Assembly: GCA_048885525.1 (NCBI GenBank)
Contig: JBHLLP010000033.1
Location: forward strand, 1-36,069
Length of the DNA stretch: 36,069 nt
Reading direction: 5' to 3'
Source of the DNA: Candidatus Hermodarchaeota archaeon
GTDB lineage: Archaea; Asgardarchaeota; Lokiarchaeia; Sigyniarchaeales; SOKP01
The notes under the pieces are model-generated. The model was not told the DNA's origin and ran no database searches. It saw nothing but the letters and a program-made list of their open reading frames with translations. A program made the position numbers and the translations under genes. Shown here in pieces: positions 1,859 to 24,272 of the stretch (the stretch's first letter is position 1; the number at the start of each line of letters is the position of its first letter).

Positions 1859-2091
1859 CTATAATTCTGAAGATAAGGTTTTATATTTAGAATATAATTT
1901 CTCGATAATAGCCTTAAATGCATCATAAACTCCTTTTCCTGTTTTTGCTGAAGTTATATAATATCCGAGAAAATTTCGCCTTTTTAGAACTTCTTGAATT
2001 GGAGATTTATCAAAATTATCTTCTTTGATTAAATCAACTTTATTGGCAAACATAACAATGGGAATATCTCCACAATACTGTTTTATATCAT
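1859..2091 (-). pseudogene. 3' remnant of a Rab-like small GTPase (G4/G5 only)
   Basis: DIKQYCGDIPIVMFANKVD...YYITSAKTG...LSSEL closely matches the C-termini of the GTPases at 3824 and 11927. Similarity stops at ~2091; G1-G3 are absent and the frame is closed by a stop near 2165. Confidence 0.85.
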
Positions 2092-2189: not shown

Positions 2190-3707
2190 TCATTTCTTAC
2201 CTTTATCAAATTTTTTTTCTTCCACAAATTCTTTATATGATTTGACTGGCTTTAAATAGTCAATTGGAAATTCGCATGCCCAGCACACATTTTCCAAATC
2301 CGTAATTGCTCGAGCACAATCTTCGCAATAAATTGCACCACAATCACATATATATGTGAATCTTGAAACTTGTCCTCTACACACTAAGCAAATTTTGGTT
2401 TCTTTAGATACTACCACTTTCTCTTCTGAAATGAACACTGGTAACAGCGCCCGTTTCTCAATAATTTCTTCAATTTGTTCATTTAATCGAGCTAATTTTA
2501 TACGTTCATCCATTGGGGCTCCCATTTCCTTTAACTTTTCCCATACTTCTGTTTGTTTTAATAATTTAGTTTGTTCGTCTGCAATCTTCTCTGCTACTTC
2601 TGTGTACCCAAACCTTTCAGCTATTTTCTGAGCTTGAGTTAGAAAACGTTTAGCTTTCTTTAATTCAGCTGTTAATAAAGAGAGTTTTCCCTGTAGAAAG
2701 TAAGTTTGAGCTAAAATTAAATACACATGTTGTTTTTCAGCAATTTCTAATAACTCTTGTATAAATGGTTGTATCTCACCTATTATTTCTGGGTCATTAG
2801 TTATTCGAAGTTCAATTAAAAATAAATCACACAGATCTATTATCGCTTTAATCCGTGTTTCAACAATTATAGTTTTATCCATAGCTAATTCTATTAATAA
2901 ACCTTCTGCCTTAACACGGTCTCTTGCTCGTAGACTTGATTTTAATACCATAGCTTTTGAATGACGATAACGGATTTTGTTAATCTCAGTATCAATACTC
3001 TCTGTAAGCTGCCGTGATTGTTCAAGGTAAACCTTTGCTTCATCAATATCTCCCTTACTGATAAAGATATCAATTAATGTTCCCAATGCGATTGATAATA
3101 CAGGTTTATAATTAATCTTAACAGCTTCTTTAGCATAGAATATTGCCTTATCATATTCTTTTATCCAAATGTAGTTATCAGCAATATTATTAAGACTAAT
3201 AGAAATTAGTTCTTTATTACTTGTAGCTTTTGCAAGTTCGTAAGCCTCTTTATTAAATTCTAAAGAACGTAGAATTTCTCCTTTCCAGCTATAAATATTA
3301 GCTTTTATCCTTACTAATGACGATTCTCTTTCTCTTAAGTCTATTGTATATGTTTGTTTAATCACTTTAAAGAGATCCTCTGCTTGCTTAATTAAATCTT
3401 CACTTTGACTTATGTTTCCCATTATAATATGTCCAAATGCTTGATTAAGCAAAGAATCAAAAGAAAAGAGTAAAGCTCCTTGCTTCTGACTTTCTTGAAA
3501 AATTTCTTCAGCATTTTTAATAGCATCGAAGTAGTTTCCTAACTTATATAAAAGCTTAACTTTTAATAATTTGCACGAAAGCAATTCTTGAGGAGATAGA
3601 ACATTTCGTTTTTCTATTTCCAAAACTATTTGGAAGGGTTCCTTAACTTTGCCCTCTTCCATAAGTTGTTTTACTTGTATCAATTTTTTATTTTCAAAAT
3701 TAGACAT
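2190..3707 (-). CDS. TPR-repeat protein with C-terminal C4C4 RING-like zinc finger
   Basis: Helical TPR-like repeats. C-terminal CLVC-x10-CDCGAIYCEDC-x10-CWAC has eight Cys with NOT4-like C4C4 RING spacing. Confidence 0.8.
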   Translation of the reverse strand: MSNFENKKLIQVKQLMEEGKVKEPFQIVLEIEKRNVLSPQELLSCKLLKVKLLYKLGNYFDAIKNAEEIFQESQKQGALLFSFDSLLNQAFGHIIMGNISQSEDLIKQAEDLFKVIKQTYTIDLRERESSLVRIKANIYSWKGEILRSLEFNKEAYELAKATSNKELISISLNNIADNYIWIKEYDKAIFYAKEAVKINYKPVLSIALGTLIDIFISKGDIDEAKVYLEQSRQLTESIDTEINKIRYRHSKAMVLKSSLRARDRVKAEGLLIELAMDKTIIVETRIKAIIDLCDLFLIELRITNDPEIIGEIQPFIQELLEIAEKQHVYLILAQTYFLQGKLSLLTAELKKAKRFLTQAQKIAERFGYTEVAEKIADEQTKLLKQTEVWEKLKEMGAPMDERIKLARLNEQIEEIIEKRALLPVFISEEKVVVSKETKICLVCRGQVSRFTYICDCGAIYCEDCARAITDLENVCWACEFPIDYLKPVKSYKEFVEEKKFDKGKK

Positions 3708-3823
3708 TTATTCAAAAAACTTGTTACACTAAATCTTATTTAGATATATTTTCTATTAAAGCTAATTTGTATTTTAAATGTGATGTAAAATACAATTATC
3801 CATTTAAAATAAAAATTAAAGTC

Positions 3824-4378
3824 CTATAATGCTGAAGATAAAGCTTTATATTTAGAATAGAGTTTATTAATGATAGCATCGAAAGCATCATGAACTCCTT
3901 GCCCCGTTTTCGCTGAAGTTATGTAGTATCCGAGAAAATTTCGCTCCTTTACAAGTTCTTGAATTGAAGATTTATCTAAATTATCTTCTATGATTAAATC
4001 AACTTTATTGGCAAATAAAACTACAGGAATATCACTACAATATTTTCTCAATTCATCATGCCAATTCTTTATATGAAGAAAACTATCTTTTCCTAATTCG
4101 TTTACTTCAAGGCTAAATACAATAATAGCGGCTCTACTTTCTTTATAAAATAAAGGGTGTAGAAAATTAAAATCATCTTGACCCGCTATATCCCAAAATA
4201 TTAAATTAATTATATTTCCCTCAATTTCTTTATCATATCTTGAAAATTGAGCACCCATAGTCTTAACATAATCTTTTTCAAAAGTACCTTTTGTAAATTT
4301 TTTAATTAATGATGTTTTACCAACTCCTCCATCTCCTATTATGGAGATCTTAAATCCAAACTCTTTAGAATTAGTCAT
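3824..4378 (-). CDS. Rab/Ras-like small GTPase
   Basis: G1 GDGGVGKT, G2 Thr (YVKTMG), G3 WDIAGQ, G4 NKVD, G5 TSAK. ATG at 4378 gives 184 aa like its paralog. No C-terminal prenylation Cys. Confidence 0.93.
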   Translation of the reverse strand: MTNSKEFGFKISIIGDGGVGKTSLIKKFTKGTFEKDYVKTMGAQFSRYDKEIEGNIINLIFWDIAGQDDFNFLHPLFYKESRAAIIVFSLEVNELGKDSFLHIKNWHDELRKYCSDIPVVLFANKVDLIIEDNLDKSSIQELVKERNFLGYYITSAKTGQGVHDAFDAIINKLYSKYKALSSAL

Positions 4379-4420
4379 TAAATCCGATAATCTCAAATTA
4401 TATTATATTTTCAATGTAAA

Positions 4421-4449
4421 ATTAGATATTGTCTAATATAAAATTTTAG
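4421..4449 (-). promoter_or_regulatory. GTPase promoter: TATA-like box plus ATTAG-N7-CTAAT palindrome
   Basis: attagatattgtctaatataaaattttag here versus attagaattatactaatttaaaattttag at 12518, upstream of the other GTPase. Confidence 0.5.
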
Positions 4450-4477
4450 GATTAAAAATTATTCATTAATTCTCAAG

Positions 4478-6436
4478 CTATATTTCACTAAATATTACAC
4501 TTTTTGTGATAAATGTCTTTGTTATTAAGGATTCAAGTGACGGGATATCCTTCAAATGAATAGACTGATTTACTTTAAAGGATTTAAGTAAACTGTGCCA
4601 AATATCTTCCACTTGAATGTGATCAATAAAGTAATTTAGTTTTTGAAGAGCATAATAGGAATCACCTTTATAAATATAAGAAATAAAAAAAGGTGGAATG
4701 GATTTTAGAAGAAGAGTATGTTCTCCGAAAATTGCGCGGTCTAATCCTTCTGAAAACATTTCCCTAATAAAATAATCAATAGTTGTTAAAAACCCGCTAA
4801 AAAGGTGCGATTCAAAAGATTTTTGATCGATAAATGAATGGGAGAATATAAGTGTGCCACCTTCTGTTATGATAAAAATTGAGACAGGTTCTTCTTCTGA
4901 GATCTGTGGGAGTTTAGTCATTCGTTTTCTTACCATATTCTCCATTTGCTCATTCAAACCTGCGAGCTTCCAGCGTTCAGATAAGGATGATTCTGATTCT
5001 TTTAGATTCTCCCAGATCTTTAATTGTGTAAGTAACTCATCATGCTCGTGTGAAATTTTCATTGCTAATCGTTTTATACCGTGTAATTCCGCAATCTTTT
5101 GAGCTTGAGTTAAAAATCGTTGAGCTGCTTTCATATTAAAATTTAGTAAAGCTAATTTGGCTTGTAATATGAAAGTTTCGCAAAACACTAGATAAGAATG
5201 TGAATTCTCTGCTAATGTTAATAATTTAGCAATATAGTGATTAAGTTCATCAAGTACTTCATTATTATTATTTATACGAAACTCGGTAAGAAGTAAGTCA
5301 CAGAGATTGATAGATGCATATATAGTCGTTTCATTTATTATTTCTTTTCCAATGATTTCTTTCAACAACTCTTCTGATTTAGCTTTATCTCGGATTCGAG
5401 AACTTCTCTTTAGCATTAAAGCTTTATTATATTGGTAAAGCAAGTCAAGACGATGATCGTTTTGTTGATTATACAAATTTTCTAGGCGTTGAAAATATTT
5501 TTTGGCAAGTTCAGTATCATCCTTTTCGAGAGCTAATGCTATCAAACCATCAATAGGGGCGGATATATTAGAAATACTAAAAGGAATATCCTCATAAAGT
5601 TGTACACTTTGTTCCAAATATTCCAAAGCAAGATCATAATTACCCTTATAATAGTAACTACTTCCAATATTGTTTAATACTATAGCAATCCAATAATTAC
5701 TTTTCATTGTTTTAAATAACTTTAAACACTTCAAATGAAGGTTCAGACTAATGTCAAACTCACCTATAGATGAATAAATCACCCCAATACCGATTTGACA
5801 ATAACCAATCCAAAAGTGGCTGAATTTAATTTCCTTTGCTAGTGACAATGCTTTCTTGGCGTATTCCATAGCAATATTATATCTAGCTTTTACTTGAAGC
5901 ATTATTCCAGCCATAAGCAGATTAGCCCAAACAATTTCGAATGATACATCAAGTTCTTCTTGTGAATCTAAGATCCATTTAATGCATTTCTCTGCTAAGT
6001 TCATATTGCCAACATAAAAATGGGTCCAAGCTTTTAACACATTTAAACGTATTTTTCTTTGGAGTAGAATTGTTTTCGATACATTAGAGACAAGTCTTAA
6101 TAGATCTTCAGCTTTTTCAATTTGTTTTACCGCTTCTTCAAGTTTATTTACTTGTGTTAATCCAAATATAATAAAAATTAATCCATCAAATGATTGAAGA
6201 TTATTATTAACTTGTTGACCTTCTTTACATATTTCTTCACCCAACTTAATAACTTCTTCACCGTTGTTCATATATACAAGAATTAAGCCTTTAAGAAACT
6301 GAAAATAACTTTTCTGTTGAAGATTAAGCCCCTCATATTGACTTATATCATTTAATATTTCAAGAGCTTTATCCAGTTTCCCAGCATCAAAAAGTTGTTC
6401 CGCTCTAGTTAACTGATTTTGCTCTGGATGAGACAT
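4478..6436 (-). CDS. TPR-repeat protein with C-terminal longin-like domain (divergent paralog)
   Basis: TPR repeats (e.g. VLNNIGSSYYYKGNYDLALEYL). C-terminal ~130 aa IFIITEGGTLIFSHSF...HLFSGFLTTIDYF...FGEHTLLL fits the longin beta-beta-alpha-beta-beta-beta-alpha pattern. Confidence 0.8.
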   Translation of the reverse strand: MSHPEQNQLTRAEQLFDAGKLDKALEILNDISQYEGLNLQQKSYFQFLKGLILVYMNNGEEVIKLGEEICKEGQQVNNNLQSFDGLIFIIFGLTQVNKLEEAVKQIEKAEDLLRLVSNVSKTILLQRKIRLNVLKAWTHFYVGNMNLAEKCIKWILDSQEELDVSFEIVWANLLMAGIMLQVKARYNIAMEYAKKALSLAKEIKFSHFWIGYCQIGIGVIYSSIGEFDISLNLHLKCLKLFKTMKSNYWIAIVLNNIGSSYYYKGNYDLALEYLEQSVQLYEDIPFSISNISAPIDGLIALALEKDDTELAKKYFQRLENLYNQQNDHRLDLLYQYNKALMLKRSSRIRDKAKSEELLKEIIGKEIINETTIYASINLCDLLLTEFRINNNNEVLDELNHYIAKLLTLAENSHSYLVFCETFILQAKLALLNFNMKAAQRFLTQAQKIAELHGIKRLAMKISHEHDELLTQLKIWENLKESESSLSERWKLAGLNEQMENMVRKRMTKLPQISEEEPVSIFIITEGGTLIFSHSFIDQKSFESHLFSGFLTTIDYFIREMFSEGLDRAIFGEHTLLLKSIPPFFISYIYKGDSYYALQKLNYFIDHIQVEDIWHSLLKSFKVNQSIHLKDIPSLESLITKTFITKSVIFSEI

Positions 6437-6644
6437 ATACTCATTTGATTTGGATTATAACTTTATGAATATAATAAGCTAATTACAATATTAAACCTAA
6501 TGCTTAATGAATCGTTTTCTTAATAAAAATCTCTTTTTTGAGAGGCTCTAAAGAAGCGCCATATTTCTTCTGAGTTTCCTTATTCTATTATTGAGAGATT
6601 TTCTTTGAAATAATTATTAAGGTTTATATAGAAAAAAAAAGAAG

Positions 6645-6727
6645 TATAGAATGGAGGAATATTGGTTTATTGTTGCATTTCATCTGGAAGTATTTACTCT
6701 AACAACCTAACTCCTCCATTTTCTATA
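6645..6727. other. Long imperfect inverted repeat (3' UTR hairpin or terminator of the 6752-7444 gene)
   Basis: tatagaatggagga (6645-6658) pairs with tcctccattttctata (6712-6727); a U-tract follows on the minus strand (6632-6640). Confidence 0.5.
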
Positions 6728-6751
6728 TTTTAATTTTAAATTAAAACAATT

Positions 6752-7444
6752 TTACTCAATGATCACAGATTCAACTGGCCATATAAATTCTCCCGTAGCT
6801 GGATTTAAAAATCCAACCTGGTTAACTTCAACTGTCCCTTCTCCCCCTTCAGTTATATATCCCTCCCCTACGAAATGTGTATACGTCAACTCTGGAACTG
6901 GTTCATCTGGATAAGGCCAAAAGCCAAATCCCGCACCAAGTATCTCAAAAAGGGATGGGATTTTTCCTACTTCTAATATATTATATAAAGACTCTGTATT
7001 GAAAAGAATCCTACATTGGAAATAGTACTCCATCGTGCCATTATATATTGGAGGATAATATATATACCCTGGAGAATTGGGGTAGAAAATCATAAAGGGT
7101 ACTTCTTTGACATGTATATTTATTGTGATTAATGTATGTTCTTCATCAATAACTCGTTCCTGAATAAATCCTTCATATTGACACTCCCAAACCAACTTAT
7201 GCTCCCAATCTAGGAAATTAAATGGCCAATTTGGTCCAAAAAAACACCATTCAACGGCATGAGGATAAATAGCAAAACCAGACACTGGATCAGCCCAACC
7301 TACAATATTTTCTCCTGCCCAATCCTCTATTGGTCTAATCGTTGTAGTAGCTTGAACTGATGTAGAAAATAAAAGCAGGACAATTCCGATTGTTGCGAAT
7401 GTCATCAATTTAGGCACTAATTTTGTTCTTTTAATATTTATCAA
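6752..7444 (-). CDS. Secreted/surface hypothetical protein with Sec-type signal peptide
   Basis: KRTK...FATIGIVLLLFSTSVQA|TTT signal peptide; beta-rich aromatic mature region. Start uncertain because the TTG at 7444 overlaps an SD-like GAGTTGAT. Confidence 0.75.
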   Translation of the reverse strand: MINIKRTKLVPKLMTFATIGIVLLLFSTSVQATTTIRPIEDWAGENIVGWADPVSGFAIYPHAVEWCFFGPNWPFNFLDWEHKLVWECQYEGFIQERVIDEEHTLITINIHVKEVPFMIFYPNSPGYIYYPPIYNGTMEYYFQCRILFNTESLYNILEVGKIPSLFEILGAGFGFWPYPDEPVPELTYTHFVGEGYITEGGEGTVEVNQVGFLNPATGEFIWPVESVIIE

Positions 7445-7474
7445 CTCTTTTTTTTTTTATTTTTAATTTTAAAC

Positions 7475-7557
7475 TTATCACCGGACACGGTGATCGATAA
7501 AATCTTGAGATTTTATTATATTTATGATTAAGGTTCCGATAAATCCATGGAACATCC
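7475..7557 (-). promoter_or_regulatory. Promoter/leader with 5' hairpin, copy 1 (homologous to 8107-8188)
   Basis: Aligns with 8107-8188 with one gap. Hairpin ATCACCG-gaca-CGGTGAT (7477-7494); shared atcttgaga, TATA-like and ttccgata blocks. Confidence 0.6.
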
Positions 7558-7680
7558 TTTTTTTAATGAAATTTCTATAGGATCGGAATAAATAATGGAA
7601 TAATTCCTGACTACACCCTGGTCTTCATTCTCTAAAAAGAAAAAAAAATTAATTAAGAATATTTTTAATTATAAAATTTA

Positions 7681-8073
7681 TCATTTCTGTTTGATATAAG
7701 AGGAAACACCTAGCACAAAAAGTATACTCATAAAGATTAATCCCATAAAAAATTGAGAGAGAGCAAAAGCTGAAAGTGTTGGGAAAAGTAAGATTAAAAG
7801 CGAAATATTTATGATTATAGTTGGGATAAATATCACGAATAAATATGAGTATATTAATTTAACACTTTCCCACTCTTTTCTACGCAGAATTATTATCGCA
7901 TAAATTGAACAAATCAGGCATATTCCTCCAAATACTCTCGGATCCATCGGATCATACCAACCAACTGCACCTATTAGAAGTTCTGGTATAGTAAGGTACA
8001 TAATTCCATATAACAAGGTAACTATTGTATAAGCTACAAGCCAAATTTTGGTTAACTTTTTTAATTCAGTCAT
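7681..8073 (-). CDS. Small 4-TM membrane protein
   Basis: Four hydrophobic segments, GWYDPMDPRVFGG loop, SD-like GAGTTGAT 6 nt before the ATG. Confidence 0.8.
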   Translation of the reverse strand: MTELKKLTKIWLVAYTIVTLLYGIMYLTIPELLIGAVGWYDPMDPRVFGGICLICSIYAIIILRRKEWESVKLIYSYLFVIFIPTIIINISLLILLFPTLSAFALSQFFMGLIFMSILFVLGVSSYIKQK

Positions 8074-8106
8074 TTTTTTATCAACTCTTTTTTTTAAAGA
8101 TCGGTT

Positions 8107-8206
8107 TTATCACCAATTTAGTGATCAATTATATCTTGAGACTCAGTTTCCTTTATAATTGGGCTTCCGATAGTTCCGTGATAGTTCCAATATAATATGG
8201 AAGTTC
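8107..8206. promoter_or_regulatory. Divergent promoter region with GATAGTTCC direct repeats (candidate operator) and leader hairpin
   Basis: GATAGTTCC at 8169-8177 and 8180-8188 (11-bp period); ATCAC-N7-GTGAT at 8109-8125; lies between divergent genes 8073(-) and 8277(+). Confidence 0.55.
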
Positions 8207-8276
8207 TATGAAATAAATATAAATAGAAAAGAAACCGATCTATAATTTAGAAAAAAAATTTAGTTTTCAAATCATC

Positions 8277-10175
8277 ATGGGTATCATAAATTATCCCCCA
8301 GAAAAGATTTATAGCCCTTCCAAGTTGAAGAGACCGGATTATGACCATATTATTCTCTGGATGTTGAATAATAATAATACATGCAAATGGGCGGATTTTC
8401 ATCGAGAACCAATTGAAATTCCTACGGGTACATTATCTAGACATTTAGACACATTAAAACGTAAGGGTTTTGTAGAAAATTTTACTAGAGGGCATTACAG
8501 AATTACTTCAGAGGGAAAAAAGAAATTTCATGAGTTATCATCATCTAAAAAGAAAAAACGCAGACTAAACTATCCTCCCGAAATAATATTAAGAAGTGGA
8601 AGGAATTACTCTCACTGGATTCTGTGGATGATTTATAATAATAATTACTGTAAAAGAACTGATTTCCTTAAAAAACCATTGTCTATAAATCAAACTTCAT
8701 TATCAAAAAATTTGAACTTATTAATTGAAAAGGGATTTGCATCAAAAGAAGATGGAAAATATCTAATTACCCAAGCAGGGAAATCTGAATACTCAAGGAT
8801 GTTAAAAAACTATGATTTGGATAGGCAAACTATTTTGGAAGAGGAAAGTAAACGAATTGAAGAGATTACTAAAAAAACACTTCAATTTTTTGAGATTTAT
8901 AATATTAAAGATGAAAATATACAATATAGGTTTCTAAATAATATACTAAGATTAGACTATGAAAAAGTAAAACCTATATTAAAAGATGAGGAAATCTTTC
9001 ATAAAATCATACTTTTCCTTTCGATTAATCATCCGGATCAATATCCAAACCTTATATCCTCTGAAGATTTTTCTAAAATTTATAAAATTAAGAAAACTAC
9101 GCTTGATTATTACATTGATGAGATCTCAGATGGTAAAATATATCCATTAAGATTTTTTAAGTTAAGGCAACCATCAGGCGAACAATATTACTTTCAATCA
9201 GATGGAACGCTAGAAAAAATGCTTCGAATAATCACCGAGAATAAAATCACTAAAGTTTCTTATTTAAATAAGCTTTTTTCTAAAAAAGTTATGTTAGATA
9301 TGGAATCCACAATAAATGATATTGCTAACAAGAGTTGTAAATTCTTATTTAATAAAAAATTGAAAGAATCTCTCAGAGAGTTTTTGCCGGAATATATTAA
9401 ATATTTAGCTTATAAAATTGAGACTAAGAAGAAATTAAAAGAGACTTATGATAAATTAGAGGGAGTTATTTGGCAGAATATAACAGATGCTTTTCAATCA
9501 AAAATCTCTGAAAATTTAGTTGATAAATATGAAGAACAAATAAAAGAGATTGAAAAAGAAATTGAAATAAAACCTAAGAATCTCAACTTATATTATTCGA
9601 AGATTAGAGTTCTGATTTACTTTAACCAATACAAAGATACAATAAATTTTTTAGAGGAAATGTTAGAAATTTTTCCTGAAAGTGAGAAGGATATTAAGGT
9701 ATTAAAAGCAGCCGTTCTTAGAAGAATGCAAAATGTTGAAGCAGGATTAGAAATCATTGAGTCTTTAATTGAAAAGTACCCTAAAGTCCATGATCTCCTT
9801 AGTTATAAAGCCTATTGGCTACAGTTTTTGGATAAAAAACAGCAAGCATTAGAAATAATTCAAAATCTTATAGAAATTGAACCTGAGGCGGGAATTTATT
9901 ATGACACATATGGTGAGATTTTAATGTATTTTGAAGATTATGAAGAAGCTGCTAAAAAATTTGTAAAGTCAATGGTTTTAGGAGCCCATGAATGGTATAT
10001 TTTTCAGACTTATATCAAATTAGGAATTTGTTATAAAGCTATTGGAAATATTGATTTAGCAGTTGAAAATCTCAATAAAGGAATAGAACTTACAGAGAAA
10101 AAAGTAAAAGATTCTGAAACAAAAGAAAAATGGCTTTCCATTGCTAATCTTTTTCTTTCAGAACTTAAGCCATAG
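8277..10175 (+). CDS. Tandem winged-HTH + C-terminal TPR putative transcription regulator (paralog 1)
   Basis: Two internal repeats NYPP...ILWM..NN...LS..L..L...G......Y.IT..G (wHTH), a possible third HTH (EDFSKIYKIKKTTLDYYIDEI), and C-terminal TPRs (YYDTYGEILM, TYIKLGICY). Confidence 0.8.
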   Translation: MGIINYPPEKIYSPSKLKRPDYDHIILWMLNNNNTCKWADFHREPIEIPTGTLSRHLDTLKRKGFVENFTRGHYRITSEGKKKFHELSSSKKKKRRLNYPPEIILRSGRNYSHWILWMIYNNNYCKRTDFLKKPLSINQTSLSKNLNLLIEKGFASKEDGKYLITQAGKSEYSRMLKNYDLDRQTILEEESKRIEEITKKTLQFFEIYNIKDENIQYRFLNNILRLDYEKVKPILKDEEIFHKIILFLSINHPDQYPNLISSEDFSKIYKIKKTTLDYYIDEISDGKIYPLRFFKLRQPSGEQYYFQSDGTLEKMLRIITENKITKVSYLNKLFSKKVMLDMESTINDIANKSCKFLFNKKLKESLREFLPEYIKYLAYKIETKKKLKETYDKLEGVIWQNITDAFQSKISENLVDKYEEQIKEIEKEIEIKPKNLNLYYSKIRVLIYFNQYKDTINFLEEMLEIFPESEKDIKVLKAAVLRRMQNVEAGLEIIESLIEKYPKVHDLLSYKAYWLQFLDKKQQALEIIQNLIEIEPEAGIYYDTYGEILMYFEDYEEAAKKFVKSMVLGAHEWYIFQTYIKLGICYKAIGNIDLAVENLNKGIELTEKKVKDSETKEKWLSIANLFLSELKP

Positions 10176-10292
10176 AAGTAGATCATTAAAAAAATCTAAA
10201 TCTTATTCTCTAAGTTTTACAATTCATTGGATAGAGCTTTAAACTTATTATAAGAAGGTTTTTTATCTATTGATCTAATTTTTATCATTCAA

Positions 10293-11807
10293 TTAATTTT
10301 TTCCTTTTATTTCTAAATCTATACTTTCTTCTTCCTTATATGATATTGTTGGCTTCAAAGAATCAATCGGAATGTCACACACCCAACATAGATTTTCCAA
10401 ATTGGTTAAAGCTCGAGCGCAGTTTTCGCAATAGATAGCCCCACATTTACATATATACGAGAAACCCAATACTTCACCTTTACATACCAAGCACATTTTC
10501 TTCTCTTTAGAAATTATTACTTCCTCTTCTTTAACTTGCGTCCTTAATATAATAGGCTTTAGATTCATTTTTTCAATTAATTCATCTATGCGAGCTAGTT
10601 CTAAACGTTCTATCATTGGTGCTCCCACTTCCTTAAGTTTATGCCATAAAACTGATTTTTCGTTTAAATCCTCTTTCTCTTTAGAAATTTGTTGGGCTAA
10701 TTGAATATGGTCAAATCTTTCTGCAATTTGCTGAGCTTGGGTAAAGAATCGTTTAGCTTCTTTAAAATTAAAAATTAGTAGACTTATTTTTCCTTGTAAG
10801 AGAAATGTCTCAGCAGCAAAATAATAGGATTTTTGATGTTCTGCAATTTTTAATAATTTTTTAATATATGGGTTTATTTCGTTTATTATATCTGAATCGT
10901 TAGTTATTCTTAATTCAATAAGAAGTAGGTCACAAATATTTATTATTGCTTTAATAACGAACTGGAAATTTTCTTTTTCCTCAGCAACTTGCTTAAATAA
11001 ATCTTCTGCTTCAATTCTATCTCTTGCTCGCAAACTCGTTTTCAATATTAAAGCTTTATAGTAATGATACAATAATTCAGAATAACTTTGTTTATCTTTT
11101 TCTATTAAATCACTCATCAGTTGGAAATAATATTTTGCATTAATAGTATCACCCTTCCCTAGATAACTATCAATCAGAAGTCCAAAAGAATTTAATAACC
11201 GAGGGGGGTAACCGACTTCTAGAGCACGTTTTGCATAATTTATAGCTTTATCATAATCTCCAAGGAAATGATAAGATTCCGCAAGATTTAATAGAGGTGA
11301 TGATTTTCGCTCTTTATCTTCACTATATTTTGCGAGCTCGAAAGCTTTTTCATTTAACATAAGGCTAAGTTGAGAATTTCCTGTAAGTCCTGCATTAATA
11401 GCTTTAATTCTGATCATATAAGATTCTTTTTCTCTAAGATCTGTCTTTGATACTCCTTTGAGATTTTCAAATATCTCCTCAGCTTTTTTAAGCGCAATAC
11501 TACTTTTACTTAAATCTCCCATCATTAAAAGTGAATATGCTTGAATTAACAAACCTTCAAAATATGAGGGTAAATCTCCTTGTTTTTGAGTTTCTTGTAA
11601 AAATTGGATAACAAGGCTAAGAGTTTTTGAATATTTTGATGACCTATATAATAACCTTAATTTCAATAACATAAAAGAGATTAAATTCTGATTAGATAAA
11701 TTACTCCTCTCCTCAATATCCAAAATAATTTGCAACGCTTCTTTAATTCTCCCTTCATATGTAAGCTGTTTTACTTTATTCAGCTCAATAATCTCAGAAT
11801 CAGACAT
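10293..11807 (-). CDS. TPR-repeat protein with C-terminal C4C4 RING-like zinc finger (paralog of 2190-3707)
   Basis: CLVC-x10-CKCGAIYCENC-x10-CWVC; shares the LRARDR..AE and CDLLLIELRITND blocks with the other TPR proteins. Confidence 0.8.
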   Translation of the reverse strand: MSDSEIIELNKVKQLTYEGRIKEALQIILDIEERSNLSNQNLISFMLLKLRLLYRSSKYSKTLSLVIQFLQETQKQGDLPSYFEGLLIQAYSLLMMGDLSKSSIALKKAEEIFENLKGVSKTDLREKESYMIRIKAINAGLTGNSQLSLMLNEKAFELAKYSEDKERKSSPLLNLAESYHFLGDYDKAINYAKRALEVGYPPRLLNSFGLLIDSYLGKGDTINAKYYFQLMSDLIEKDKQSYSELLYHYYKALILKTSLRARDRIEAEDLFKQVAEEKENFQFVIKAIINICDLLLIELRITNDSDIINEINPYIKKLLKIAEHQKSYYFAAETFLLQGKISLLIFNFKEAKRFFTQAQQIAERFDHIQLAQQISKEKEDLNEKSVLWHKLKEVGAPMIERLELARIDELIEKMNLKPIILRTQVKEEEVIISKEKKMCLVCKGEVLGFSYICKCGAIYCENCARALTNLENLCWVCDIPIDSLKPTISYKEEESIDLEIKGKN

Positions 11808-11926: not shown

Positions 11927-12481
11927 TTACAATTCATTGGAAAGAGCTTTAAACTTATTATATAATTTTTCGATAAGAGTATTAAAAGCTTTATAAACTC
12001 CTTCTCCTGTTTTTGCTGATGTTATATAATATCCGAGAAAATTTCGTTCTTTTATAAGTTCTTGAATTTTGGTTTTATCCAAATTGTCTTCCTCAATTAA
12101 ATCAACTTTATTGGCAAAAACAACAATAGGAATATCTCCACAGTATTGTTTTATATCATCATGCCAATTTGTTATATGTTCAAAGCTCCGTGTACCCAAA
12201 TCGTTTTCTTCGAGACTATATACGATAATAGCTGCTCTACTTTCTCTATAAAAAGAAGGACGTAAAAAAAGGAAATCATCTTGCCCTGCTATATCCCAAA
12301 ATAATAATCTAATCTTATCTCCACTAATTTCTGCAAAGAACTCAGAAAATTGGGCACCAATGGTCTTAATATATTCTTTTTGAAACGTGCCTTGCGTGAA
12401 CTTTTTAATCAAGGAAGTCTTTCCTACGCTACCATCCCCTATAACAATAACCTTAAATCCGAATTTTTGAGAATCATTCAT
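11927..12481 (-). CDS. Rab/Ras-like small GTPase
   Basis: GDGSVGKT, YIKTIG, WDIAGQ, NKVD, TSAK; close paralog of 3824-4378. Confidence 0.93.
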   Translation of the reverse strand: MNDSQKFGFKVIVIGDGSVGKTSLIKKFTQGTFQKEYIKTIGAQFSEFFAEISGDKIRLLFWDIAGQDDFLFLRPSFYRESRAAIIVYSLEENDLGTRSFEHITNWHDDIKQYCGDIPIVVFANKVDLIEEDNLDKTKIQELIKERNFLGYYITSAKTGEGVYKAFNTLIEKLYNKFKALSNEL

Positions 12482-12616: not shown

Positions 12617-12697
12617 TTAATAATTTTGATAAACTTGACAATATCCATTGTTATAGACTTTTACTCGTTGTTTTTCAGCAACGTCCATTTTTTTCAT
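12617..12697 (-). CDS. Unannotated 26-aa peptide MKKMDVAEKQRVKVYNNGYCQVYQNY
   Basis: Strong SD GGAGGTGAT (12713-12705) 7 nt before the ATG, own TATA box (12765-12771), U-rich terminator-like tract after the stop (12597-12613), upstream region homologous to that of 23283-23357. Confidence 0.75.
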   Translation of the reverse strand: MKKMDVAEKQRVKVYNNGYCQVYQNY

Positions 12698-12899: not shown

Positions 12900-14855
12900 T
12901 TAATTTAACCGAATTGTTTTTTCAGCAAATATTTCATTTATCAATGGTTCTAGGGAAGGGATATCTTTTAATTGTACTAATCGGCTTGTTTGGTTGTATT
13001 CATTGAACGTCTTCCATATGGTTGCATCCTGTTTAACATTATCAATGAATTTTGCTACTCTTTGCTGCGCGAGATATGATTGTCCCTTGAATAAATAGCA
13101 TACAAGGAAAGGATGCAAAGAATTCATAATAATTGTATACTCCCCAAAATTCGCCCTGTTGAGACCCTCAGAGAACATTTGATCACTAAAGGAATTTATA
13201 GCTGTTAGAAAACCTCCAAAAAGATGATCCTCGAAAGCCCATTCTTCCGCAAAGGAATTAGAGAATAGGGGCCTACCACCCTCTGAAATAATCAATAGTA
13301 CGATAGGTTCCTCATCAGTAAGCTCAGGAACAATAATTTCTCGTTTTCGGATCATCCTTTCCATCTGTTCATTTGGACTTGCTAACTCCAAGCGTTCATA
13401 TAATGGTGCTTTAGATTCTTTTAATTTGTTCCACACATCTAATTGTTTAAGTAATTCATCATGCTCATTCGATATCTTTATTGCTAACCGATTGAGACCA
13501 TAATTATCTGCTATTTCTTGAGCCTTAATTAATAACTGCCGAGCTTTTTTTATATCCAACGTAATTAAGGATAATCTTGCTTGGAGCAAATATGTTTCAG
13601 CTAATAGAGAATAAGAACGCGAATTTTTAACGGTGTCAAATAATTGAGAAATATAAACTTGCAATTCATCCAGTATTTCAGGTTCGTTAGTTGCATATAA
13701 CTCAAATAGGAGCAAATCGCACAAGTTCAGGAGAGCCATTTTTAAACTTTCAAAGTCAGAGATTTCTTCTTCAATCAACTGTTTTAACATCTCTTCAGCT
13801 TTCCCACGATTAACAGCGCGGGGGCTAGATTTCAGGTATATAGCTCTATCAATGTTATATAGTATATTATAATAATTGGATTGATTCTTTTCTTGATCAG
13901 AAATTTGCTTCATTCGATTTAACCATCGCTGTGCCTGTTCAAGATCGTTCATATCAAGAGCTAATTGAAACAAACTATCAGTAAAGGCAAATTTCTGAAT
14001 AATTGTACCATATTCTTCTGCAATAGTTATACTTTTTTTCAAAAACTTTAAGGCATTGTCGTAATCGCCTTTTTCATGGTATGTCATTCCAATGCTATTA
14101 TATATTGGTGATAATAATTCTAATTTGTTTTCTTTCTCTGTAAATGATAGGATTTGTTCGTAATAACTAAGAGCCTTATCTAATTCACCTTTGAGCGTAT
14201 AAATCATTCCAAATTGCAAATTGCAATAGTGAAAAATATCTATTAAGTCAAGTTTATTGCAATGATTTTTACATGATTTAATATATTCTAAAGCACAGTT
14301 TAAGTTTCCAATTTTCCAGGAAATCACTCCAAGTTGGTAATGCATAAGAGCAATATCTACTTTTAGATTGAGATCTTCTAGGATTACTAGAGATTCCTCC
14401 CTAAATTCTTTAGCTTTTTCCAGATCTCCTTTCTGCTCATGATAAGCGCCTTTGTTCCATAATATATATGCTTTTCTTTTTTTGAGTTCTGTGGATAATT
14501 CTTGAGGGAGTATCTTCAGTAGATCTTCACTCTTTTTGATAAAGCCAGCTGCTTCATTTGTCTTATAAGACCAATTTGATATAGCTCCCATAAGAATATA
14601 GACATCAAGCAATAAAATGGAATTTTCAAGCTTTTGGCTTTCACGATAAGCTTTTTCGGTATATTTTGTACATTCATTTCTATCTTGAAAATAAAAGGCG
14701 ACAAAACCTTTTAGACAATAATAAGCTATCCGCTCACGATAAGAGAGATCTTTTTTGTTTTTAAAATCATTGAGTATTTGAAGAGCTTCTTCGATTTTAC
14801 CTGCTTCAATAAGCTTTTCTGCTTGACCTAATTCCTTATGTATTAAATGAGCCAT
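12900..14855 (-). CDS. TPR-longin protein, array copy 5
   Basis: TPR repeats plus longin-like tail LLIISEGGRPLFS...HLFGGFLTAINSFSDQMF. Confidence 0.82.
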   Translation of the reverse strand: MAHLIHKELGQAEKLIEAGKIEEALQILNDFKNKKDLSYRERIAYYCLKGFVAFYFQDRNECTKYTEKAYRESQKLENSILLLDVYILMGAISNWSYKTNEAAGFIKKSEDLLKILPQELSTELKKRKAYILWNKGAYHEQKGDLEKAKEFREESLVILEDLNLKVDIALMHYQLGVISWKIGNLNCALEYIKSCKNHCNKLDLIDIFHYCNLQFGMIYTLKGELDKALSYYEQILSFTEKENKLELLSPIYNSIGMTYHEKGDYDNALKFLKKSITIAEEYGTIIQKFAFTDSLFQLALDMNDLEQAQRWLNRMKQISDQEKNQSNYYNILYNIDRAIYLKSSPRAVNRGKAEEMLKQLIEEEISDFESLKMALLNLCDLLLFELYATNEPEILDELQVYISQLFDTVKNSRSYSLLAETYLLQARLSLITLDIKKARQLLIKAQEIADNYGLNRLAIKISNEHDELLKQLDVWNKLKESKAPLYERLELASPNEQMERMIRKREIIVPELTDEEPIVLLIISEGGRPLFSNSFAEEWAFEDHLFGGFLTAINSFSDQMFSEGLNRANFGEYTIIMNSLHPFLVCYLFKGQSYLAQQRVAKFIDNVKQDATIWKTFNEYNQTSRLVQLKDIPSLEPLINEIFAEKTIRLN

Positions 14856-14971
14856 AATTTTCTCAGATATTATAGGTTTGAATAGCTTGGATTATAACTT
14901 TTCAGATACAAGTTATATAGTAAGAAAATTACCATTTTAAATGTAATTACAATACCAATAAAAAATCGAAT

Positions 14972-16924
14972 TTACGCAATCAGGGGGACACTTTTATCTA
15001 TAAAGATTTTAGTTATCAATGGTTCAAGGGAAGGAACATCTTTTAATTGAACTAATCGGCTTGTTTTATTATAATCATTAAACATCTTCCATATGTTAGC
15101 ATCCTCTTTAACATGATCAATGAATTTTGCCACTCTTTGCTGTGCAAGATATGATTGACCCTTAAATAAATAACATACGAGGAATGGTTCGAGAGGATTC
15201 ATAATAATAGTATACTCTCCAAAATTAGCCCTATTGAGCCCCTCAGAGAACATCTGATCACTAAAGGAATTTATAGCGGTTAAAAAACCTCCAAAAAGAT
15301 GATCTTCGAAAGCCCATTCTTCTGCAAATGATTTAGAGAATAGAGGCCTTCCACCCTCCGAAATAATTAAAAGTACTATAGGATCTTCATCAGTAAGCTC
15401 AGGAACAACTATTTCTCGTTTTCGGATCATTTTCTCCATCTGTTCATTAAGTTGTGCTAACTTCAAGCGTTCAGCTAAAGATGCTTCTGATTCTTTTAAT
15501 TTGTCCCACACATCTAATTGTTTAAGTAATTCATCGTGCTCATTCGAAATTTTCATGGCTATTAAATTAAGACCGTATTTTTCGGCAACTTCCTGAGCTT
15601 GTGTCAAAAACCGCCGAGCTTCGTTCGTATCAAAAGTTATTAATGCTACTTTGGCTTGTAATAGGTAGGTTTCAGCGAGATACCAAAACGAGTTTGTTTT
15701 CTCAGTTAATTCTAATAAACGATTTAGATTGGTTTTAATCTCTTCTAGCACTTCAGCATCGTTAGTTATGCGTAATTCAACCAATAATAAATCACAAAGC
15801 TCTATTAATGCTTCAATTTTTGAAATAACTCCTTCTTCTTCAATAATTTCTCTCAATATTTCTTCTGCTTTGACCCGGTTTTTAGCTCTTGTGCTTGTTT
15901 TCAGTAGGATGGCGCTACTCAAACGAAAACATGAATTAATCCATTTACTTTCCTCTTGTTCGTTGAGCTGCTTTAAGCGGTTAAAGTGTTTTTGAGCTAA
16001 TTCAAGATCGCCCATTTCGACTGCTGCACCAATCAAATTAGTAAGAGTTGTAGATGTGTGTAAATTAATCCCGAGTTCCTCTCTTATTGTTAGACCTCGC
16101 TCTAGATGCCCTAAAGCACGAATAAAGTCACCCTTTCCTCTATAGATATTCCCAATTTGGGTATGTGCAGCTGCGATCATCTGTTTATTATTAATCTTTT
16201 CGTGTAATTTTAAACCTTGCTCTGCATATATGAGACTTCGATCTAATTCACCTTTATTCAAATGAACAAGCATTAACCATAGCAAGTTTTGAGCTATAAA
16301 ATACTTGCTATTACTTTCCTCTGCTAATAATAAACTTCGCTTTAGATATTTAATGGCATGATTCAATTCACCTTTTTGTCCAAAAAGAATATGAGCGATC
16401 CAATAAAGGGATTCAGCAATCATAACTTTATTGTCTAATTTCTCTCCCAATTCTAAACTCTGTTCTAAGAACTTTAGTTGATTATCCATTATTTGAATGA
16501 ATATACCTTTAACTAAAAAAATGTGAGCTTCTCGTTTCATGATGTCTTCTGGTAATTCTCGGGTAAATTTTTTTAATAATTCTTCGGCTTGGTTAATTAC
16601 ATTAATAGCTTCCTCTTCTCTATCAAGAAATTTTAAAGCCTTCGCGCTGAGTATTAAGGCGTCAACTGATTGGAGATTTTTTCCCAACTCTAAACTCTCT
16701 TTATATGTTTGATCTGCTATTTTAAGCATTTCCTCAAATTTCCATTGCCAATATAAAAGGTTGCACTTGAGGAGCCGAAATGATACTTTATCCTGAAGCA
16801 TGAGGCCCTTCATTTGCTCGAAACTGTCAATGAGTTGGAGGGCTTCATCATACTTGCCTTCATCAATGAGTTTTTTTGCTTGAACAAGCTCCTTAGATTC
16901 ATCACTGGACATATTTTCATCCAT
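14972..16924 (-). CDS. TPR-longin protein, array copy 4
   Basis: Same architecture; ELRITND subtype. Confidence 0.82.
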   Translation of the reverse strand: MDENMSSDESKELVQAKKLIDEGKYDEALQLIDSFEQMKGLMLQDKVSFRLLKCNLLYWQWKFEEMLKIADQTYKESLELGKNLQSVDALILSAKALKFLDREEEAINVINQAEELLKKFTRELPEDIMKREAHIFLVKGIFIQIMDNQLKFLEQSLELGEKLDNKVMIAESLYWIAHILFGQKGELNHAIKYLKRSLLLAEESNSKYFIAQNLLWLMLVHLNKGELDRSLIYAEQGLKLHEKINNKQMIAAAHTQIGNIYRGKGDFIRALGHLERGLTIREELGINLHTSTTLTNLIGAAVEMGDLELAQKHFNRLKQLNEQEESKWINSCFRLSSAILLKTSTRAKNRVKAEEILREIIEEEGVISKIEALIELCDLLLVELRITNDAEVLEEIKTNLNRLLELTEKTNSFWYLAETYLLQAKVALITFDTNEARRFLTQAQEVAEKYGLNLIAMKISNEHDELLKQLDVWDKLKESEASLAERLKLAQLNEQMEKMIRKREIVVPELTDEDPIVLLIISEGGRPLFSKSFAEEWAFEDHLFGGFLTAINSFSDQMFSEGLNRANFGEYTIIMNPLEPFLVCYLFKGQSYLAQQRVAKFIDHVKEDANIWKMFNDYNKTSRLVQLKDVPSLEPLITKIFIDKSVPLIA

Positions 16925-17023
16925 ATTTTTAGAAAAAATTGGATTCTAATTTTCAATATACAAGTTATATATTAAGTTATTTATCATTTTAAATGTACTT
17001 AAATTATCAATAAAAATTCGAGT

Positions 17024-19000
17024 CTACGCAATCAGGGGGACGCTTTTATCTATAAAGATTTCATTTATCAAGGGTTTGAGGGAAGGAATATCCTTTAATT
17101 GTACCAATCGGCTTGCTTGATTAAATTTATTAAAAATATTCCAAATTTCTGCATCCTCTTTAACCTTATCTATGAATTGTGCTACTCTTTGCTGCGCGAG
17201 ATATGATTGTCCCTTAAATAAATAACATACGAGGAAGGGATGGAGAGAATTCATAATAATGGTATACTCCCCAAAATTAGCCCTGTTTAGCCCCTCAGAG
17301 AACATCTGATCACTAAAAGAATTGATAGCAGTTAAAAATCCACCAAAAAGATGATCCTCAAAAGCCCATTCCTCAGCAAACGATTCAGAGAATACAGGTC
17401 TTCCACCCTCGGAGATAATCAGAAGAACGATAGGTTCTTCATCAGTAAGCTCAGGAACATCTATTTCTTGTTTTCGGATCATTCTTTCCATCTGTTCATT
17501 TAGATGTGCTAGCTTCATGCGTTCTGACAAAGATGATTCTGATTCTTTAATTTTGTTCCATTCATCTAATCGCTTAAGTAATTCATCGTGTTCATTCGAA
17601 ATTTTGATTGCTAATCGATTAAGACCATATTTTTCTGCTATTTCTTGAGCCTTAGTTAGAAAATATCGAGCTTTTATCAAATCCAACGTTAATAACGCCA
17701 ATTTAGCTTTTAAAAAGTATGTTTCAGCTAATAAAAAATAGGAATTCATCCGTTCAGATTCGTCTAATAAACGAGCGATAATAGATTCGATCTCTTCTAA
17801 AACTTCTAAATCATTGGTTATACGTAATTCGACTAATAATAAATCACATAATTCTAGCATTGGGGCCGCCGAATAAATATTTCCTTCGTCTAAAAGCTCT
17901 TTTAAGATTTCTTCTGCTTGGACTCGATTTTTAGCTCGAGGGCTGGCCTTCAAAATCAAAGCTTTATAATAAAGATGCATCATATTAACATATTCGTCCC
18001 TCAATTGATTGTTTAAACGCTCAATTTGATCAAGATGTTTCTGTGCTGACTCAAGATCGCCCTTATCAATTAAAATTTGAATTAAAACCCCGCGGGCTTT
18101 AGCACTATCTTTTAACATTTCCAACTCAGAATATAATGCTAATCCTCGCTCAGCGTAGTCTAACGCGCGATTATATTCTCCTTTCATTCTATACGTATTT
18201 CCTAGAGAGCAGCACCCTACTGCTATTTCGGATTTATTATTGAGCTCCTTGAAAATCGCTAAACTTTGTTCATAATATTTAATACTCAGATCAAGTTCAC
18301 CCCTAAGGAAATACACTGCATAGATATAGGTTAAACCAAATGCAATTATATATTTATTTTTAAGCTCTTTTTTCTTAACTAGAGCCAGAAATCGCTCGAT
18401 ATACTTTAAAGCATCATTTGTTTCACCCTTTATACGACCTAAGTTATAAATTATTTCCATAAGTGATATAGCGATTTCCTCTTTATCCCCAACCTCTTCT
18501 TGCAATGCTAAACTCTGATAAAGTTGATCTAAAACAAAATTTACATCCCCATTTCGATTAAAGTATTTATTATTAGAAAATGCTTTAACATAAATTATTC
18601 GTGCCTTTCTTTTCTTGTAATCTTTTGGTAATTCTTTAGTTAGGGTTTTCAGTAGTTTTTCTGCCTGCTTAATTGTATCAGAAACTTCCTCTTTTCTATA
18701 AAGAAATACTAAACCTAAAGCCTTAAAACATAAAGCATCAATAGACAGAAGATGTTTACCTAATACTAAACTCTCTCCATACGTTTGTTCAGTAAATTTG
18801 ACAAGATCTTCATATTGCCCTTGTTGGAATAAAAGCTCGCATTTGAGGAGATGACATGACACAATCTCATGAAGATTGCGTTCACCTGTTTCCTCAAATT
18901 TATTCATTAATTGGATCGCTTTTTCGCTCTTTCCCTTGTCTATGAGTTGTTTTACAAGAATTAATTCCTTCGGTTCTAAATAAGTAATATGATTTTCCAT
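17024..19000 (-). CDS. TPR-longin protein, array copy 3
   Basis: Same architecture; ELRITND subtype. Confidence 0.82.
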   Translation of the reverse strand: MENHITYLEPKELILVKQLIDKGKSEKAIQLMNKFEETGERNLHEIVSCHLLKCELLFQQGQYEDLVKFTEQTYGESLVLGKHLLSIDALCFKALGLVFLYRKEEVSDTIKQAEKLLKTLTKELPKDYKKRKARIIYVKAFSNNKYFNRNGDVNFVLDQLYQSLALQEEVGDKEEIAISLMEIIYNLGRIKGETNDALKYIERFLALVKKKELKNKYIIAFGLTYIYAVYFLRGELDLSIKYYEQSLAIFKELNNKSEIAVGCCSLGNTYRMKGEYNRALDYAERGLALYSELEMLKDSAKARGVLIQILIDKGDLESAQKHLDQIERLNNQLRDEYVNMMHLYYKALILKASPRAKNRVQAEEILKELLDEGNIYSAAPMLELCDLLLVELRITNDLEVLEEIESIIARLLDESERMNSYFLLAETYFLKAKLALLTLDLIKARYFLTKAQEIAEKYGLNRLAIKISNEHDELLKRLDEWNKIKESESSLSERMKLAHLNEQMERMIRKQEIDVPELTDEEPIVLLIISEGGRPVFSESFAEEWAFEDHLFGGFLTAINSFSDQMFSEGLNRANFGEYTIIMNSLHPFLVCYLFKGQSYLAQQRVAQFIDKVKEDAEIWNIFNKFNQASRLVQLKDIPSLKPLINEIFIDKSVPLIA

Positions 19001-19099
19001 AGATTATCAGTTTAAGAATATGGATTATAACGGTTTGAATACAATTATATTATTAAGAAAATTGAAATTTTAAATGTAATTAAACTCTCAACTAAAAAA

Positions 19100-21052: not shown

Positions 21053-21154
21053 AAATTATCGGTTAAAAATTTGGATTATAACTTTTCAGATACAAAGAAT
21101 ATATTAAGAAAATTACCATTTTAAATGTAATTTTCTAACAATCTAAATTCGAAC

Positions 21155-23282: not shown

Positions 23283-23357
23283 TTATTTAGTAATTGTTGG
23301 GATAATAGGAAATCCAGCACTTTTTACGAATATTGCCTTGCTTGCTTTTCTTTTCAT
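23283..23357 (-). CDS. Unannotated 24-aa peptide MKRKASKAIFVKSAGFPIIPTITK
   Basis: SD-like AGTGAT 7 nt before the ATG, same spacing as the 12697 peptide; homologous promoter; long U-rich tract after the stop (~23242-23275). Confidence 0.7.
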   Translation of the reverse strand: MKRKASKAIFVKSAGFPIIPTITK

Positions 23358-23614: not shown

Positions 23615-24214
23615 TTAATTTAAAAACTTTGATTTCTGGATAAATAAAATATTGGATTTAACGTTAGATTCTTTCAATTTCTTCGATATCTCAACAAAAG
23701 TATTTTCTTCACCAAAATGAACAAAAGTTATTCCTTTATCTTCGCGACCTTTTAAAATCTCTAGAATTCTTTTAGTAATAGCATCCGTTCGTACACGATT
23801 ATTGATGTAATGCTTTAAATCTTTTAATTCATCTGAGTAATCATAAATTAAATAACCTAGCTCTTTAGCAGTTGGAGAATTTTTATCTTCTAATGAATTA
23901 TATGTAGCTTTTAACTCAGAAAGTCTCTCCTGAAGTTCAGTTATTTGACTTGAGAAGTAATCCTTTACATAATGAGGTGATTCAACTGTGAAATAAGGGA
24001 TCTCAAATTGTTTCAACACTTCTGCCAAATAAGTATTATTGAAGTCTCTTAGATTTATACTACCCAAATCAATTGTTGCGAAATGTATAGGAAGATTCCT
24101 TATCTTTTCAACAACATCCTCAATATCTTCTTGTGTAACTTCACCATTTAAATCTCTTATTAAATATCCAGAGAAATCTATATCAGCCAATAATTCAAAC
24201 ATTATACTTGCCAT
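23615..24214 (-). CDS. Hypothetical alpha/beta protein, possibly degenerate TraB/PrgY/GumN (TIKI/EreA-like) fold
   Basis: Start moved to ATG 24214 (MASIMF; SD-like AGTGAA), since the 24277 ATG lies only just 3' of the TATA box, probably upstream of the transcription start. EDIEDVVEKIRNLPIHFATIDL, YLAEVLKQFEIPYFTVES and RTDAITKRILEIL...TFVHFGEEN...LKE resemble TraB/GumN blocks by eye. CDS is confident, family is tentative. Confidence 0.6.
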   Translation of the reverse strand: MASIMFELLADIDFSGYLIRDLNGEVTQEDIEDVVEKIRNLPIHFATIDLGSINLRDFNNTYLAEVLKQFEIPYFTVESPHYVKDYFSSQITELQERLSELKATYNSLEDKNSPTAKELGYLIYDYSDELKDLKHYINNRVRTDAITKRILEILKGREDKGITFVHFGEENTFVEISKKLKESNVKSNILFIQKSKFLN

Positions 24215-24272
24215 TTTATTTTCACTTTTTTTTATTTTGTTTGTTTTTTTTATAATTATATTATAAGATAAG

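Follow-up and report, generated by a model that had tools for sequence, protein, structure and literature searches.

In the present study, we analysed a stretch of 36,069 nucleotides (the window) from Candidatus Hermodarchaeota archaeon (GenBank assembly GCA_048885525.1, contig JBHLLP010000033.1, positions 1 to 36,069), in which two minus-strand genes encode proteins that join tetratricopeptide repeats (TPRs) to a C-terminal RING finger. We consider it probable that these TPR-RING proteins are putative sensor-fused RING ubiquitin ligases (E3s) of a dedicated, lineage-restricted cascade for a ubiquitin-like protein (Ubl), composed of JAB, E1, E2 and the Ubl itself. This reading draws together a shared scaffold, a recurrent swap of the output domain, a RING fold, restriction of the finger to one family of archaea, and its co-occurrence and linkage with an intact divergent cascade, all of which were seen in the sequences and models. 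To judge from what its close homologues are called, the genome is Lokiarchaeial (Promethearchaeota). The gene of protein A (2190..3707) is an intact open reading frame (ORF) of 505 aa, with variable N-terminal TPRs, a conserved core at about residues 246-420 and a C4C4 RING at residues 440-478. The gene of protein B (10293..11807) is likewise intact and encodes 504 aa.

The core motif which the initial annotation had assigned to both TPR-RING and TPR-longin proteins was present in the alignment of all eight window proteins (two RING, six longin). Profile searches of the genome identified 22 proteins with this TPR core, at hidden Markov model (HMM) E-values between 2e-53 and 1e-77, so that chance likeness was excluded. 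Their outputs are longin in 13, the finger in six, a finger continuing on another contig in one, a carbon-nitrogen hydrolase in one, and in one the output is cut by an assembly gap. The seventh TPR-RING gene is split over the ends of contigs C31 and C86 (L026:1-1598 and L027:3626-3898), and the sequence overlaps. The alternative output does adopt a longin fold, as had been proposed, with Atlas TM values of 0.74/0.75 over 124 residues to the Fuz/Mon1/HPS1 longin cluster; the Pfam match to Fuz_longin_1 reached only E 0.046, and a PDB sequence search with core and longin gave no significant match. By analogy with the known role of longin domains, the longin forms presumably act on small GTPases, by GEF or GAP action. 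Both window RING proteins are without about 88 residues (about two TPRs) that the window longin proteins contain, and this deletion is independent of the effector, as longin forms with a short scaffold exist. Between paralogues A and B, the variable TPRs are 35-50% identical and the RINGs 60-68%. Asn-bearing TPR helices were also seen in the alignment of the TPR proteins.

The proposal of a modular family with interchangeable outputs was borne out by these 22 core proteins, by the tree and by DNA mosaics. In a tree built from the scaffold only, the RING/longin label changes 10 times, seven of these changes being forced by well-supported branches, and six were still forced under a mixture model after six long-branch rows had been dropped. 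A single RING clade among the short scaffolds was rejected (AU p = 2e-5). The two parts of the scaffold, divided at the TQAQ motif (residues 357-360 of protein A, 2628..2639; 10731..10742 in protein B; both minus strand), gave different histories. Upstream of TQAQ there were 10-11 effector changes and one change of the short/long TPR deletion, and downstream, in 61 poorly resolved columns, two to three effector changes. In a RING gene and a longin gene compared between two genomes, DNA identity is 90-94% upstream of TQAQ and 57-68% downstream, and one longin protein is 75-78% identical to gene 2190 upstream of the motif and 76-86% to the window longin gene 4478 downstream of it. From the split histories and the DNA mosaic, the exchanged unit comprises the last core helices, the linker and the effector. 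The switch had been placed after a short linker; the sequences do align up to the linker, but on this comparison the exchanged 3' unit starts about 70 residues before it, at TQAQ inside the core, which is the approximate crossover point. Thus, it is very likely that the effectors have been swapped repeatedly by exchange of 3' ends near TQAQ, and homologous recombination in the conserved core would be the simplest mechanism.

Searching for C-terminal fusions of the core, as had been advised, returned longin, RING and hydrolase outputs, and the RING itself was found mostly on membrane sensors. In this genome, the finger is also carried by 10 core-less proteins (multi-pass membrane proteins, beta-helix single-pass receptors and two enzyme fusions), and among the best 150 database representatives of the finger about 110 are membrane proteins and 21 have the TPR core. 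The core with longin occurs in 181 of 301 Asgard genomes from many families, and strong finger matches (E < 1e-20) occur only in this genome's family, in 38 of its 69 genomes. It is therefore most likely, judging from the distribution, that TPR-longin is the older form and that the RING was acquired later in one Lokiarchaeial family.

Some other combinations of these domains were observed. The carbon-nitrogen hydrolase domain, with its Glu/Lys/Cys motifs, is a third TPR-core output (L014:1804-4278 on contig C3 of this genome, G000; L099:104-2716); one protein (P0260) combines TPR core, longin and a C-terminal TIR domain; and a single-pass membrane protein (P0047) has captured the last TPR-core helix together with the RING. 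The finger also forms the tail of enzyme domains (L019:2461-3192, L020:2660-3415, P0005, P0026, P0042), namely PNPOx-like, acyl-CoA synthetase C-terminus, ATC hydrolase, SDR and C_GCAxxG_C_C, and P0011 is a further sequence with the PNPOx fusion. If recombination appends RING tails to many genes, the TPR-RING genes could be neutral chimeras, its by-products, and the tails on housekeeping enzymes (PNPOx-like, acyl-CoA synthetase C-terminus, SDR) as well as on short fragments would fit this. We regard it as very improbable, since 143 TPR-RING motifs keep an almost invariant RING with a subfamily-specific spacing, seven copies are present in this genome, and the RING moves together with the helices that precede it.

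The cysteine spacing which had been read from the letters, C-x2-C-x10-C-x-C-x4-C-x2-C-x10-C-x2-C, is exact in both window proteins (2274..2390 in A and 10377..10493 in B, minus strand), giving eight Zn ligands (C4C4) that are invariant or nearly so in 150 homologues. We call the finger CW-RING, as it ends in C-W-A-C-E in protein A, with Trp in place of Pro and Glu at the linchpin position, and in C-W-V-C-D in protein B. An AlphaFold2 model from the 150 sequences (mean pLDDT 82.6) showed a hairpin and a central helix; an earlier model, built on 15 sequences, had a lower pLDDT (75.9) and reached Z 3.6 at most. In the fold search, nearly all of the top-50 VIA rows were RING or U-box domains, the best being TRAF3 (Z 5.3), followed by RNF213 (Z 5.2, rmsd 2.3 over 51). 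The top Foldseek matches were also RINGs (best E 4.4e-3), and the Atlas model of the finger matched RING clusters at TM of about 0.6. These scores are modest, as expected for a domain of about 50 residues. According to the models, the finger is a RING fold with hairpin, central helix and two Zn loops, and the fold matches suggest cross-brace Zn geometry. A Rab-effector finger of the rabphilin/FYVE type (Pfam FYVE_2 E 0.02, with GTPase neighbours) was rejected, as the central helix of a RING is seen in the model and the fold matches listed are RINGs; PHD and C1 fingers gave sub-threshold Pfam matches only.

The residues around the ligands are strongly conserved. The hydrophobic E2-contact residue two positions after ligand 1 (V/I/M) is kept in 152/152 motifs, Trp and not Pro follows ligand 7 in 152/152 motifs (the profile used for selection favours Trp), and Leu stands four positions after ligand 6. 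The C-x-C spacing is found in 138 of 143 TPR-fused members, as against C-x2-C in 128 of the 139 other members of the family.

The resemblance to the C4C4 RING of eukaryotic NOT4, which had been pointed out at first, holds as to the RING fold; no special tie to NOT4 was found, as in the fold search it only ties with other RINGs. CNOT4/NOT4 shares the eight Cys ligands, the RING fold (1e4u, Z 4.2) and, with the TPR-fused subfamily, the C-x-C spacing. The NOT4 RING has spacers of x13 and x11, compared with x10 and x10 in CW-RING. In addition, CNOT4/NOT4 has an N-terminal RING, an RRM and the end C-P-x-C-R, whereas here the RING is C-terminal, there is no RRM match and the end is C-W-x-C; the default spacing of the CW-RING family is C-x2-C, unlike the C-x-C of NOT4, and NOT4 was absent from the 60 best PDB sequence matches of the finger.

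The advice to look for ubiquitin, E1 and E2 in the genome gave a clear answer, as all are present. There are three E2s, each beside an E1. Two of them (on contigs C16 and C47) are near-universal in relatives, with canonical E2s in 72 of 73 related genomes, so that general co-occurrence with E2 was uninformative until the divergent E2 had been separated out. The third, on contig C37, belongs to a cassette of longin-GTPase, JAB, E1 and E2 in this order, together with a convergent Ubl ending in GG (G000 C37:27311-29676). This Ubl can be aligned with ubiquitin and NEDD8, and its GG is followed by a short tail. In the cassette E2, HPN and the catalytic Cys are retained, and all 31 copies have W-S/T-R/K-L in loop 7, as compared with W-S-P-A in canonical E2s; this E2 ends in a conserved acidic run and an I-I-I/L-D/E-D tail (L109:9612-10193). 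A more canonical second operon (L110, G000 C47:7301-13906) encodes Ubl, E1, E2, JAB and a multi-pass membrane protein whose RING is degenerate; in the E2 of this operon, Arg occupies the loop-4 position that is usually aromatic.

Of the 301 Asgard genomes, 33 were found to have the divergent E2; these all belong to the 38 with strong CW-RING matches, and it was found in 0 of the 31 others of the family; within genera, the pattern of co-occurrence is patchy. Among the five RING genomes without the cassette E2, a RING gene adjoins the cassette E1, at a contig edge, in one and the Ubl in another; of the other exceptions, one has an intact TPR-RING and two stop-broken RINGs, one has a divergent receptor form, and one is 89% complete. 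Furthermore, a CW-RING gene lies within 25 of the 35 fetched cassette regions, directly beside the Ubl in about 16. Of the 10 regions with no such gene, 5 stop at a contig edge; with 1-19 copies in 3.5 Mb, the chance expectation was estimated arithmetically at a few percent. No other E3 candidate was found within the cassette.

Co-folding with an E2, which had been recommended as a check, supported the pairing. The RING of gene 2190 and the cassette E2 scored 0.80, and the best of the controls, which were without the genome's two other E2s, scored 0.01; 58 of 80 solved complexes attained the mark applied, and so did 2 of 110 mismatched pairs. The runs agreed in at least 96% of contacts, with a partner pLDDT of at least 91. 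In the predicted interface, RING loop 1, central helix and loop 2 face E2 helix 1, Tyr74 and residues 116-119, which are the canonical surfaces; RING residue 21, the hydrophobic residue two positions after ligand 1, lies within it, and the RING Trp touches E2 Arg116, both residues replacing canonical prolines. Binding of the RING to the cassette E2 is thus predicted by the model. Instead of this E2, the TPR-RING proteins might work with the conserved canonical E2 of C16 or that of C47; canonical E2s are present in 72 of 73 related genomes, including one that has a TPR-RING and no cassette. This seems hardly probable to us, because the distribution of the canonical E2s does not track the RING, full-length canonical E2s are not close to RING genes among the rows listed, and loop 7 of the C16 and C47 E2s keeps Pro.

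Several points weigh against an active E3 of this cascade. The linchpin position after ligand 8 holds N, D or E in 267 of 282 motifs, Lys once and Arg never. In human RNF38, N/D/E linchpin substitutions are among the weakest binders of E2~Ub, with trace activity only for Glu (PMC12326332), and the equivalent Arg matters in srfp of Caldiarchaeum (PMC5654768); taken alone, the missing Arg together with these data argued against E3 activity. As RING and E2 are a textbook pair, the co-fold may have passed through likeness to solved structures, and it is support, not proof, of the modelled pairing. The related genomes are non-independent samples in the co-occurrence counts. One genome (G276), which is 100% complete, has kept an intact TPR-RING, and no cassette gene was found in it; two of its three RING copies are broken (the stop-interrupted L134 and L139). 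The RING genes near the cassette are almost all membrane forms, with one TPR-RING nearby (7 kb), and the cassette of the genome studied here has no RING neighbour.

Alternatively, CW-RING could be a non-catalytic interaction module of the BMI1/PCGF or TFIIH p44 kind, which docks the sensors on the cassette E2 or another partner, or binds Ubl-modified proteins. Like CW-RING, these non-catalytic or structural RINGs have no linchpin Arg, and they are among its sequence and fold matches, although the sequence matches are weak (E 7e-4 for BMI1/PCGF and 4e-3 for p44). The absence of the Pro also suits such a role, and the conserved acidic-hydrophobic tail of the E2 itself could support E3-independent transfer. 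In contrast to BMI1/PCGF and p44, CW-RING has neither a partner RING nor a TFIIH context here, and it tracks the E2 cassette. In addition, the predicted contact uses the canonical E3 surfaces of the E2, the RING genes stand beside the Ubl of a cassette that has no other E3 candidate, and the partner E2 is itself altered where it faces the Trp, so rules for the linchpin drawn from human RINGs may not apply here. We therefore consider a purely non-catalytic module unlikely, while giving it some weight, and favour a ligase working with the divergent E2.

The neighbourhood of the two genes was examined for a substrate. The initial annotation had proposed the neighbouring GTPase, and in the window both TPR-RING genes follow a Rab-like small GTPase gene on the same strand (3824..4396, minus, Pfam Ras E 3e-39, upstream of A; 11927..12481, minus, Pfam Ras E 1e-42, upstream of B). 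Each is also followed by a GTPase 3' remnant on the minus strand, at 1859..2077 downstream of A (84% identical to 3824-4042) and at 10217..10252 downstream of B (36 nt, 97% identical to 11927-11962). An E3 acting on the GTPase encoded directly upstream would suit this arrangement. Synteny does not support it: at 19 TPR-RING loci elsewhere, a GTPase of any kind was within 1.5 kb at one, and this was a distantly related one; the close GTPase orthologue stood next to TPR-longin genes, and no GTPase gene adjoins the five other TPR-RING genes of this genome. The remnants downstream of both genes suggest that the adjacency arose by local tandem duplication, and the GTPase as substrate is improbable. 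Along with the remnant at 1859-2077 there is a 53-bp stretch copied, with 79% identity, from the end of a SET-domain gene, which lies at 1232-1819; four other genomes (L035, L036, L039, L040) also have a SET gene next to TPR-RING or TPR-longin genes.

The rest of the window contains further members of the family. A TPR-longin protein of 652 aa with the long scaffold is encoded at 4478..6436 (minus), and five TPR-longin genes form a tandem array at 12900..23122 (minus; 12900-14855, 14972-16924, 17024-19000, 19100-21052 and 21155-23122). A putative regulator with a winged helix-turn-helix and TPRs (wHTH-TPR; 8277..10175, plus) is a recurrent neighbour of the family in other genomes; a second such gene is at 24386-26281, and homologues lie beside TPR-RING or short TPR-longin genes at at least six other loci. 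Two tiny minus-strand ORFs, 12617-12697 (26 aa, directly upstream of the GTPase/TPR-RING B pair) and 23283-23357 (24 aa), have upstream regions of about 120 bp that are 83% identical, and the stretch 24212-24333 resembles this shared region. It is possible that the two ORFs are candidate peptide ligands for the TPR proteins.

Among eukaryotic E3s with TPRs are rapsyn (TPR-coiled coil-RING), CHIP/STUB1 (TPR-U-box) and TTC3. These likewise have a TPR recognition arm, a helical connector and a C-terminal RING or U-box; the homology seen goes no further than generic TPR, the best natural TPR match being LGN/GPSM2 (E about 1e-4), and the output is exchangeable in the archaeal family, unlike in the eukaryotic proteins. 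Since the TPR-RING fusion is confined to one Lokiarchaeial family, the likeness is most likely convergent.

The ubiquitin operon of Caldiarchaeum subterraneum and Asgard archaea (PMC5654768) is likewise a Ubl-E1-E2-JAMM cluster with a RING as candidate E3, and the two systems have in common a pro-Ubl with residues after GG and a hydrophobic E2-contact residue in RING loop 1. In contrast to srfp, CW-RING is C4C4 and not RING-H2, and it is multi-copy (up to 19 per genome) and sensor-fused rather than one small stand-alone protein. It has none of the helix Trp, Pro and Arg, of which W58 and R69 are needed for the full activity of srfp (PMC5654768). The cassette differs from the Caldiarchaeum operon in the altered loop 7 of its E2 and in that most RING genes are dispersed; encoding with Ub/E1/E2/JAMM, as for srfp, applies family-wide to the RING near the 25 of 35 cassettes and not to the window genes, nor to TPR fusions generally. 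Overall, by comparison, the system would work like the srfp/E2 pair or a eukaryotic TPR-RING/U-box ligase, yet it departs from canonical RING E3s at the Pro and the linchpin, and it appears to be a member of neither the NOT4 nor the srfp group. Fusions of longin to signalling domains and extensive domain shuffling of eukaryotic-signature proteins have been described in Asgard archaea by Liu et al (10.1101/2020.10.19.343400); longin as a shuffled output is shared with our findings, and in the part of that work consulted the TPR-longin/TPR-RING pair and the recombination hotspot are not described. The literature, of which few subscription papers were covered, held no description of the TPR-RING family or of the cassette, only Asgard domain shuffling and ubiquitin operons in general.

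It is suggested that the proteins could operate as follows. The variable TPR groove would bind a peptide or protein ligand, and exchange of the 3' end would wire a given TPR recognition arm to a longin or a RING output. The presence of the same RING behind extracellular and multi-pass sensor domains leads us to read it as a signal output. The RING would then recruit the divergent E2 of the cassette through a co-adapted surface, with Trp for Pro in the RING and Arg/Lys for Pro in loop 7 of the E2, and may promote transfer of the Ubl, the acceptor being the bound protein, the ligase itself or a fixed target. The longin-GTPase fusions of the cassette would be the best genomic candidate for such a target, because in several genomes they are joined to the hydrolase domain that is also the third TPR output (nitrilase-fold/carbon-nitrogen hydrolase forms of 790-870 aa).

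More broadly, we tentatively propose, as a possibility short of an even chance, an independent eukaryote-style expansion of E3s in a prokaryotic lineage. One orthogonal Ubl/E1/E2 line would be served by many sensor-fused RINGs (TPR, seven- and nine-transmembrane, and beta-helix receptors) through a co-evolved, linchpin-free RING-E2 interface, with TPR sensors rewired between longin and RING at a recombination hotspot and all outputs perhaps converging on the cassette longin-GTPases. Since RING and cassette are confined to one Lokiarchaeial family, the system is lineage-specific and not ancestral to eukaryotes, a parallel experiment. The usual picture of an archaeal ubiquitin system is a single compact operon that includes one small RING, whereas here multi-copy sensor-fused RINGs come with their own E2 and Ubl. 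The crossover within a conserved scaffold provides a concrete mechanism behind the shuffling of domains that has often been remarked on for Asgard eukaryotic-signature proteins. As a small purifiable system, it could show whether a RING works without the linchpin Arg, how one E2 comes to serve many E3s and how parallel ubiquitin and Ubl lines are insulated from each other.

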